This document shows positions 28,281 to 29,363 of a DNA stretch of 64,000 nt, one piece after another. Source of the DNA: Escherichia coli (GTDB lineage Bacteria; Pseudomonadota; Gammaproteobacteria; Enterobacterales; Enterobacteriaceae); assembly GCF_030013205.1 (NCBI RefSeq), contig NZ_CP122648.1; one strand, 5' to 3'. Within the stretch, counting starts at the first letter, position 1; every line of letters starts with the position of its first letter. A program made the position numbers and the translations under genes. Below the pieces are notes generated by a model. The model made no database searches, had not been told where the DNA came from, and was given only the letters and a program-made list of their open reading frames with translations.

Positions 28281-28442
28281 CCTTGAAACCACTAGCTTAC
28301 TGATAGTGCTCCAGCAAAACCACGTCTCTGCCGGGTTTGTCTTTACATTTGCGAGGCGCTTTCCAGATTTTTCACGCCCGTGAATTTCCCTGTATCCATC
28401 CAGCAAAAACGGGTGTATAAAACTGTACATTCATACAGCAAA

Positions 28443-29363
28443 ATGAGTTCTACTATGGCACTGGAAAAAGGAATTGCAGAGTTAGTCGAAGAGTTTATCG
28501 CTGCGGGTCGCCCCTCATCGCGTCAACAAAGTATTGCGCAGCGCAGGGAGGGCTATATCGCCAGCGCTGTCCTTGCGGGTGAGACAGAAACGCGGGTAGA
28601 TATTCAGACTATCGAACTTGAAGGGATGATCTTACGAATAGTGTCACCGCTGAATGCCCCGACATTACTCCCGACGATAATTTATTACTACGGTGGCTGT
28701 TTTGTTAGCGGCGGGTTCGCAACTCACGACAACCAGCTGCGCCAGTTAGCCTATTACGGGCAATGTCGGGTTATTGCCGTCCAGTATCGGCTGGCACCGG
28801 AACAGACTTTCCCCGCCGCCCATGATGATGCGCAACGAGGTGCAGAATTAGTCTGGCAACACGCCGAACGACTCGGCGTTGATAAACAACGGATAACTCT
28901 TGCCGGTGACAGTGCGGGCGGACATCTGGCGCTGGTAACTGCTTTGCGATTAAAGCGTGCTGGCGAGTGGCAACCGGCACAACTCATCTTAATTTATCCC
29001 ATGCTTGATGCGACTGCGCATTTCGAAAGCTACATACGCAATGGTCACGATTACATCATCACACGCGACACTTTACTGAGCGGCTTTGAGATGTATCTGC
29101 CAGGCATTGAACGCAGGCATCCTGAAGCCAGCCCTCTTTGGCGCGATGATTTCAATGGCTTGCCACCTGTACATATCATTACCGCTGAATACGACCCACT
29201 TTGCGATGAAGGTGAAGCGTTGTATCACCGCATGACAGGGCAAGGAGTGCAATGCACCTGCCAACGCTACCTTGGCGTTATCCACGGATTTTTTCAGTTA
29301 GGTGGTATCAGTGAGGCTGCGCGATCGGCGCTGCGGGATGTGGCCTGGAGAGCGGGAAGGTAA
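28443..29363 (+). CDS. Alpha/beta-hydrolase esterase/lipase of the HSL (Aes-like) family (about 306 aa; start uncertain)
   Basis: GDSAGG nucleophile elbow, downstream DPLCDEG and HGFF (Asp/His of the triad); oxyanion-hole region reads YYYGGCFVSGG rather than the usual HGGG; candidate starts at 28380 (GTG), 28443 and 28455 (ATG) all lack a clear Shine-Dalgarno. Confidence 0.7.
   Translation: MSSTMALEKGIAELVEEFIAAGRPSSRQQSIAQRREGYIASAVLAGETETRVDIQTIELEGMILRIVSPLNAPTLLPTIIYYYGGCFVSGGFATHDNQLRQLAYYGQCRVIAVQYRLAPEQTFPAAHDDAQRGAELVWQHAERLGVDKQRITLAGDSAGGHLALVTALRLKRAGEWQPAQLILIYPMLDATAHFESYIRNGHDYIITRDTLLSGFEMYLPGIERRHPEASPLWRDDFNGLPPVHIITAEYDPLCDEGEALYHRMTGQGVQCTCQRYLGVIHGFFQLGGISEAARSALRDVAWRAGR

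Follow-up and report, generated by a model that had tools for sequence, protein, structure and literature searches.

An Escherichia coli family IV esterase with a lineage-specific tyrosine in its oxyanion-loop motif and a predicted LexA box

What becomes of a hormone-sensitive lipase (HSL)-type esterase when the histidine of its HGGG motif is replaced? The question is raised by an open reading frame (ORF) at positions 28380..29363 (+ strand) of a 64,000-nucleotide stretch of Escherichia coli DNA (contig NZ_CP122648.1; hereafter, the window), which we confirmed to be present and open, and which reads YGGC where HGGG is expected. An original prediction, made from the sequence alone, had considered both replaced residues non-canonical and had proposed either altered chemistry or substrate range, or a gene that is weakly expressed or decaying. 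The comparisons reported here suggest that the cysteine is ordinary and that the tyrosine is the change peculiar to E. coli, in a gene that probably still encodes a working enzyme.

The ORF belongs to the carboxylesterases of family IV (HSL type) and to their GDSAG subfamily. It matches Pfam PF07859 (Abhydrolase_3) with an E-value of 5e-68 and 229 bits (gathering score 25), the match spanning 1-209 of the 210 profile positions, and a phmmer search against all Protein Data Bank (PDB) sequences found 76 solved HSL-family chains at E<=1e-20. In a 100%-identical record the NCBI Prokaryotic Genome Annotation Pipeline (PGAP) names the product, WP_001306651.1, 'alpha/beta hydrolase' and begins it at 28455, giving 302 amino acids (aa); residue numbers below follow this protein, counted from ATG 28455. 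The best curated model is NCBIfam NF058653 (LipP1), whose match takes in almost the whole ORF (residues 32-322 of 327 aa), yet the hydrolase is no member of that family, with 235 bits against a cut-off of 350. It likewise falls below the equivalog cut-offs for chloramphenicol hydrolase (NF033149, 162.5 against 500) and for Aes (NF007547, 139 against 389). Aes (4krx; PRK10162) is the other HSL-family esterase of E. coli, likewise cytoplasmic and with a GDSAG elbow; it is only a distant paralog of the hydrolase (PDB E = 6e-29), being a core gene product with a canonical HGGG, and it is not known to be under LexA control. The coding sequence and its catalytic features are as follows.

28455..29363, + strand: coding sequence (CDS) of the 302-aa alpha/beta hydrolase (family IV, HSL type, GDSAG subfamily), delimited by Pfam, the PGAP start and ortholog N-termini
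28689..28700, + strand: oxyanion-loop motif Y79-G80-G81-C82 (TAC GGT GGC TGT), placed by HMMER alignments to 4ypv, 2yh2 and 6i8d
28905..28922, + strand: nucleophile elbow G151-D-S153-A-G-G (Ser153 codon 28911-28913), read from the sequence and invariant in 113 orthologs
29193..29195, + strand: catalytic Asp247 in YDPLCD, aligned to the catalytic residue of 4ypv and 2yh2
29283..29285, + strand: catalytic His277 in GVIHGFF, aligned to the catalytic residue of 4ypv and 2yh2

The oxyanion-loop motif in E. coli and its relatives

The HGGG of solved esterases falls on YGGC without gaps: 4ypv reads 'lpvlvyfHGGGwvig', 2yh2 'lpavvyyHGGGfvlg' and 6i8d 'llptliyyHGGGfvig', where the hydrolase reads 'llptiiyyYGGCfvsg'. 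Three gap-free alignments to solved structures, together with the 113 orthologs described below, rule out that the true motif lies elsewhere or that its position is an alignment artefact, and bear out the original prediction of a non-canonical motif at this place. The GDSAGG elbow and the downstream Asp and His motifs that it had reported were also all found (Ser153, Asp247, His277). Moreover, the YRLAPE motif is present, reading QYRLAPEQTFPAA and matching the 'dyrlapeh' of solved esterases, and His91 stands 12 residues past the oxyanion-loop motif, as in solved family members. The Gly-Gly pair of the family motif is in place (G80-G81), and the residue before it is Tyr79 in the position of the family His. 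Est8 (4ypv), PestE (2yh2), EH1AB1 (6i8d), EST2 (1evq), AFEST (1jji), EstD11 and E53 share with the hydrolase the Abhydrolase_3 fold, GDSAG, the triad, YRLAPE and H91, and solved family IV esterases align with it at E-values of 1e-50 to 1e-41 across ~240 residues. All of these carry HGGG, whereas in the E. coli enzyme position 1 is Tyr and position 4 is Cys.

Among 5.8 billion proteins searched, more than 110 orthologs with 73-83% identity came to light, from Salmonella, Citrobacter, Enterobacter, Leclercia, Lelliottia, Superficieibacter, Pseudocitrobacter, Trabulsiella and Klebsiella indica. Position 79 is His and position 82 is Cys in 113/113 full-length orthologs from outside E. coli, both glycines also being kept, so that all of them read HGGC. 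HMMER, run exhaustively against 1.84 billion cluster representatives, gave more distant relatives: 150 diverse sequences at 30-78% identity and, with the E. coli query, 151 domain hits. The motif is HGGG in 119 of these, HGGC in 12 (~8%), HGGA in 5, HGGS in 3, HGGW in 2, and HGGV and HGGR in 1 each; a further five begin with His (HPGG 2; HAGG, HGSG and HKGG 1 each). The occurrence of HGGC, HGGA, HGGS, HGGV and the like among relatives marks motif position 4 as naturally variable, and a notable change from Gly to Cys is rejected: the Cys is clade-wide and recurs in distant relatives. The first position behaves differently, with His in 148 of the 151 hits. The three hits without it are the E. 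coli query and two evidently degenerate proteins: P0129 has a CNGC motif and has lost the nucleophile serine (GDSAGG to DGNAGS), and P0210, a truncated protein of 132 aa, reads YGGL.

Within E. coli the tyrosine appears to be fixed. We compared eight alleles chosen across the 97.7-100% identity range of complete-genome matches, among them those of 83972, O111:H8, NCTC10444, an opossum isolate and a guinea-fowl isolate, and codon 79 is TAC in all eight; Tyr79 is also found in 14/14 E. coli cluster members. In metagenome contigs, a 33-nt pattern left C/T-ambiguous at the codon's first base recovered 11 copies with TAC and none with CAC. The substitution, H79Y, is a single CAC to TAC transition. 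By these comparisons HGGC is the norm of the clade and His to Tyr the one real oddity, confined to E. coli; of the two replacements first considered non-canonical, the tyrosine stands and the cysteine does not.

What might Tyr79 do? The oxyanion hole of E53 is formed by the backbone amides of G90 and G91 of its HGGG at 88-91 (PMC8767022), and that of EstD11 by Gly76, Gly77 and Ala145 (PMC7905190). By analogy, the corresponding amides of the hydrolase would be those of G81, C82 and A154, the same as in its orthologs. In family IV the backbone amides that make the hole thus belong to motif positions 3 and 4 and to the residue following the nucleophile Ser. Residue 79 would therefore lie in the second shell, and Tyr for His should perturb the active site and not abolish activity. 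An H103A variant of Aes reportedly retains activity. Position 4 is tolerant in a crystallised enzyme as well: the permafrost esterase PMGL2 carries HGGAF, with the last Gly of HGGG replaced too, but its motif still begins with His and its elbow, GCSAG, places it in the GTSAG/GCSAG subfamily (PMC6986724).

Start codon, Shine-Dalgarno and predicted LexA box

Two further claims concerned the 5' end of the gene: that its start is ambiguous among GTG 28380, ATG 28443 and ATG 28455, and that none of the three has a recognisable Shine-Dalgarno (SD). The ambiguity can be settled in favour of ATG 28455 by orthologs, PGAP and the comparison of alleles, and the lack of an SD is confirmed. The region upstream contains the following features.

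28348..28369, + strand: conserved block TTTGCGAGGCGCTTTCCAGATT, with little or no variation across nine genera, ~47 nt upstream of the -10 hexamer
28380..28454, + strand: non-coding in-frame upstream stretch with GTG 28380, GTG 28413 and ATG 28443, starts that are unused or not conserved
28416..28421, + strand: probable -10 hexamer TATAAA, abutting the LexA box, its TATAA invariant in nine genera
28421..28440, + strand: predicted LexA (SOS) box AACTGTACATTCATACAGCA, core CTGT-N8-ACAG at 28423-28438, from the motif and its conservation in nine genera
28441..28447, + strand: position of a degenerate Shine-Dalgarno, AATGAG in E. coli (-2.2 kcal/mol) and AATAAG in B1-type alleles (-1.0 kcal/mol)

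All orthologs start with MALEKGI, that is, at the equivalent of ATG 28455, which is the sole in-frame start common to all eight E. coli alleles. The position of GTG 28380 holds an in-frame TGA in strain 83972, through a 1-nt insertion, and ATG 28443 is ATA in O111:H8-type alleles; GTG 28413, an in-frame candidate missing from the earlier list, lies like GTG 28380 upstream of the inferred -10 element. This comparative evidence argues for translation from ATG 28455, not 28380. A longer product, begun at GTG 28380 (327 aa, MNFPVSIQQK...) or at ATG 28443 (306 aa, MSSTMALEK...), would agree with the frame being open from 28380 in the window and with ATG 28443 being in frame, downstream of the inferred transcription start and present in many alleles. 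We consider it highly improbable in view of the TGA and ATA codons just described, the MALEKGI start shared by orthologs and PGAP, the location of the GTG codons upstream of the -10 element and LexA box, and the lack of an SD at either candidate. Where ATG 28443 is present it could be co-used, adding MSST.

Duplex energies with the anti-SD sequence are +0.4 kcal/mol for GTG 28380, +0.9 for ATG 28443 and -2.2 for ATG 28455, against -3.9 to -5.6 kcal/mol in eight orthologs; orthologs carry AAGGA, AAGGG or AAGGTG 7-10 nt 5' of the ATG. The absence of an SD is therefore a derived trait of E. coli, an ancestral SD having been lost, and in-frame ATG 28443 is a by-product of its erosion. Since the ancestral SD is lost, translation is expected to be weak.

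The predicted LexA box lies 14 nt 5' of the start codon and holds the sole CTGT-N8-ACAG in the window. Its heterology index (HI) is ~3.8, inside the range of 1.2-9.7 of the K-12 LexA boxes used to build the matrix, against 10.5 for the next-best site elsewhere in the window; both values are approximate. TATAA, followed by A or C, and the box are kept in 9/9 genera at -31 to -34, while the flanking spacers diverge. With a weak -35 (TATCCA) 17 bp upstream of TATAAA, transcription would start near 28428, inside the box. A scan for consensus promoters and terminators found nothing on the + strand upstream of the hydrolase gene, so the -10 and -35 assignments were made from conservation only.

This arrangement has a published counterpart. 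In Salmonella Typhimurium 14028, the HSL-type hydrolase gene nlhH (STM14_4846) belongs to the SOS regulon, with a 15-fold induction by nalidixic acid (Merida-Floriano et al., 2021; PMC8072944); its single LexA box, with an HI of 7.63, stands 13 bp from the start codon, and the ATG of the divergent higB-2 lies 184 bp from the box (PMC8072944). The E. coli gene, too, has a divergent higB-like toxin gene, the distances from the box being 14 and ~195 bp as compared with 13 and 184 bp. Salmonella orthologs share with E. coli both the LexA box and the gene order fdhE, toxin-antitoxin (TA) pair, hydrolase, fabY; they differ in having HGGC and an AAGGA SD where E. coli has YGGC and no SD. Induction is known for Salmonella nlhH only, and we infer LexA control in E. 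coli by analogy with this probable ortholog. The suggestion that the gene is weakly expressed is thus plausible, given the lost ancestral SD and the strong, conserved LexA operator at the predicted promoter.

The conserved block TTTGCGAGGCGCTTTCCAGATT is kept even in genera without the upstream TA module and may be a regulator site. It has no palindrome, and an Rfam search of the intergenic region gave no match. A sigma-54 promoter on the minus strand of 28348-28369 (TGGAAAG-N3-CTCGCA) was considered and is unlikely, as Enterobacter breaks the GG and the direction is away from any gene.

Constraint on the gene and competing explanations

Is the gene decaying? The CDS was found in 2639 of 5426 complete E. 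coli genomes, 2636 of the matches having a query coverage of 80% or more and an identity of 97.7-100%, and the exact 909-bp span is preserved in 59/59 evenly spaced full-length matches from complete genomes. Among the eight alleles, pairwise ratios of nonsynonymous to synonymous substitution (dN/dS; Nei-Gojobori) are 0.04-0.22 at dS 0.02-0.09; a His-bearing control, two Enterobacter hormaechei alleles, gives 0.165 at dS 0.08. Tajima relative-rate tests with six outgroups detected no excess change on the E. coli branch. At 150 ortholog columns that are at least 95% conserved, E. coli differs at two, H79Y and Y211F, where the median for other orthologs is 1 and the highest count 6; F211 is also found in three His-bearing orthologs. 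The triad, GDSAGG, His91, YRLAPE and the LexA box are retained in the alleles examined. For intact copies these results argue against decay: purifying selection is at the level of a His-bearing lineage, the rate is not accelerated, and the triad and other motifs are whole. Judged from its sequence variation, the gene is intact and moderately constrained, yet dispensable. The sole partial match among complete genomes, in E. coli IH5 (NZ_CP168949.1, 5148085-5151606), is surrounded by pieces of unrelated genes, all truncated (from manC, an ABC permease, a flagellar hook gene and an AIDA repeat gene), and looks like a mis-assembly rather than biology.

We therefore favour, as the likely explanation, an esterase that still functions, under LexA repression and with poor translation. 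The gene would be the E. coli copy of an ancestral enterobacterial cytoplasmic family IV carboxylesterase gene, always located between fdhE and fabY and transcribed from a promoter at which LexA would cover the -10 and start region. The E. coli lineage would have fixed H79Y in the HGGC motif of the clade. As the oxyanion amides (G81, C82, A154) and the triad (Ser153, Asp247, His277) are unchanged, the enzyme most likely still hydrolyses esters, and H79Y would at most tune loop stability, rate or specificity. Expression would be low outside the SOS response, and the gene would be non-essential, deleted in about half of E. coli strains. On this view it is a modest, lineage-specific variant, neither a dying gene nor a new kind of enzyme.

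Several observations weigh against a functional esterase, and most of them would fit a pseudo-enzyme, or a gene on its way out, in which H79Y crippled catalysis in the E. coli ancestor; such a protein might be weakly kept for non-catalytic binding, as with Aes-MalT or the plant GID1 receptor, or be lost lineage by lineage along with erosion of the SD. His79 is invariant in all intact relatives seen and the other His-less relatives are the degenerate P0129 and P0210, which indicates that the His matters, and its loss could cost much activity. The SD was lost in the same lineage as H79Y. No copy is present in ~51% of complete genomes, K-12 having lost it by deletion. In the same strain pair the core neighbours fabY, dtd and yihY have dN/dS of 0-0.01, less than a tenth of the value for the hydrolase gene. 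Three of the 11 metagenomic copies (L023, L024 and L031) have frameshifts (-2 nt at 141-142, -13 nt at 655-667, +2 nt after 614), which are possibly pseudogenes in some lineages or assembly errors (L023 has 2.3x coverage). Rare alleles (P0274, P0280, P0284) carry G81S (YGSC), G151D (GDSAGG to DDSAGG) and G86C, the G81S allele occurring on 29 contigs including one complete genome; in a sample this small, these motif-glycine alleles may hint at relaxed constraint on catalysis. Two points of another kind tell against the favoured explanation as well. The searchable literature library yielded nothing specific on what the HGGG histidine does or on mutants of it; nothing was found that joins 'YGGG' with esterase and oxyanion, and the LipN paper treats only the residue following the motif, not the motif His. 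Finally, STM14_4846 is the ortholog of the E. coli gene with probability and not certainty, an identification made by gene name, neighbour, orientation and distances. Despite all this we hold a pseudo-enzyme to be unlikely. The dN/dS of 0.04-0.22 matches that of the His-bearing Enterobacter pair, the E. coli branch is not accelerated, changes at conserved columns number two in 150, the motifs and the LexA box are retained, no length change occurs in the 59 genomes, and H79Y leaves in place the oxyanion amides, which belong to the backbone.

At the other extreme, Tyr79 could have been selected because its hydroxyl alters active-site chemistry or specificity, either as an extra hydrogen-bond donor near the oxyanion hole, as in 'Y-class' alpha/beta hydrolases, or by shifting the balance between hydrolysis and acyl transfer; lowered translation would then limit the cost of an SOS-induced enzyme. 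Its fixation in all sampled E. coli phylogroups, followed by purifying selection, is consistent with such adaptive re-tuning, and so is the second change, Y211F, which by our reading of the alignment falls on the 'wfF' stretch of the Est8 (4ypv) cap region, a stretch that lies in the substrate pocket. Set against this, drift can carry a single substitution to fixation where a gene is dispensable, F211 occurs in three His-bearing orthologs and is hence not coupled to Tyr79, and Y-class enzymes have their Tyr at the oxyanion residue position itself, not at the position of the HGG histidine. We find selection of Tyr79 doubtful, and equally so the broader proposal that H79Y, Y211F (in the presumed pocket wall) and the SD loss together represent a selected re-tuning of an SOS-induced esterase toward another substrate or reaction type.

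Genomic neighbourhood and significance

The hydrolase locus lies between fdhE/yiiF/yiiE and fabY (yiiD), and the order fdhE-[TA]-hydrolase-fabY is found in nine genera. An island or horizontal acquisition was rejected, as the gene occupies the same fdhE...fabY slot in nine genera and its absence from K-12 is a deletion. K-12 MG1655 lacks window positions 27024-31281 (4.26 kb) in a clean deletion that takes most of a 92-aa ORF, a 73-aa ORF, the TA pair, the hydrolase and most of a 617-aa ORF; its scar is the 5' ~100 nt of the 617-aa ORF, within the unannotated 852-bp fabY-yiiE gap. Upstream of the hydrolase, a RelE/HigB-like toxin and a helix-turn-helix (HTH) antitoxin are encoded at 27624-28226 (- strand), divergently from it, and this site is a TA hot spot (loci L010, L012, L013, L015, L017 and L018 in our set). 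E. coli, Salmonella and Citrobacter have the RelE/HigB-like toxin with a NadS/HTH antitoxin there, L010 and Lelliottia a PIN/ribbon-helix-helix (VapBC-like) pair, and Enterobacter and Leclercia no TA pair; Superficieibacter and Pseudocitrobacter have an additional HigB/HTH pair downstream. Two features follow the hydrolase.

29362..29402, + strand: perfect 19-bp hairpin right after the hydrolase stop codon (minimum free energy -37.5 kcal/mol, z = -7.6)
29532-31385, - strand: low-GC 617-aa ORF between the hydrolase and fabY

Where fabY directly follows the hydrolase, as it does in some strains, the sequence diverges 5 nt past the stop and another hairpin, AAAAGGTTTTCA...TGAAAACCTTTT, is present; the differing hairpins identify 29362-29402 as the junction of a structural polymorphism, bordering the strain-variable segment with the 617-aa ORF. 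That ORF is full length in 1061 of 5426 complete genomes, including O157:H7, and in ~2000 others just the first ~100 nt remain. Sequence searches of Pfam, NCBIfam and the PDB gave no match for it, and PGAP splits it into a 'transposase' and a partial hypothetical protein. Its sequence includes VVMGCKSAKDRTISI, a CX5R(T) P-loop, which recalls lipid phosphatases of the SopB/IpgD/MptpB type.

The alpha/beta hydrolase annotation, the enzyme family and the SOS control of Salmonella nlhH were already known, and that understanding stands. We did not find described before the E. coli-specific YGGC, the SD loss that accompanies it, or the conservation of the operator across genera. For annotation, the start codon is fixed and the motif Cys is normal for the clade. 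For enzymology, the gene offers a natural, species-wide H-to-Y change at a site that is His in essentially all intact family IV esterases, and His-bearing orthologs at ~80% identity are ready controls for the role of the motif His.

The gene is carried by about half of natural isolates, including sequence type 131 (ST131), 83972, avian pathogenic E. coli (APEC) and O111, and is likely a member of the LexA regulon; because K-12 has lost it by deletion, SOS regulon lists based on K-12 miss it. Were the re-tuning of Tyr79 true, it would be a population-fixed, natural remodelling of the oxyanion loop in the HSL family, and would provide a clue to the role of the esterase in the DNA-damage response.

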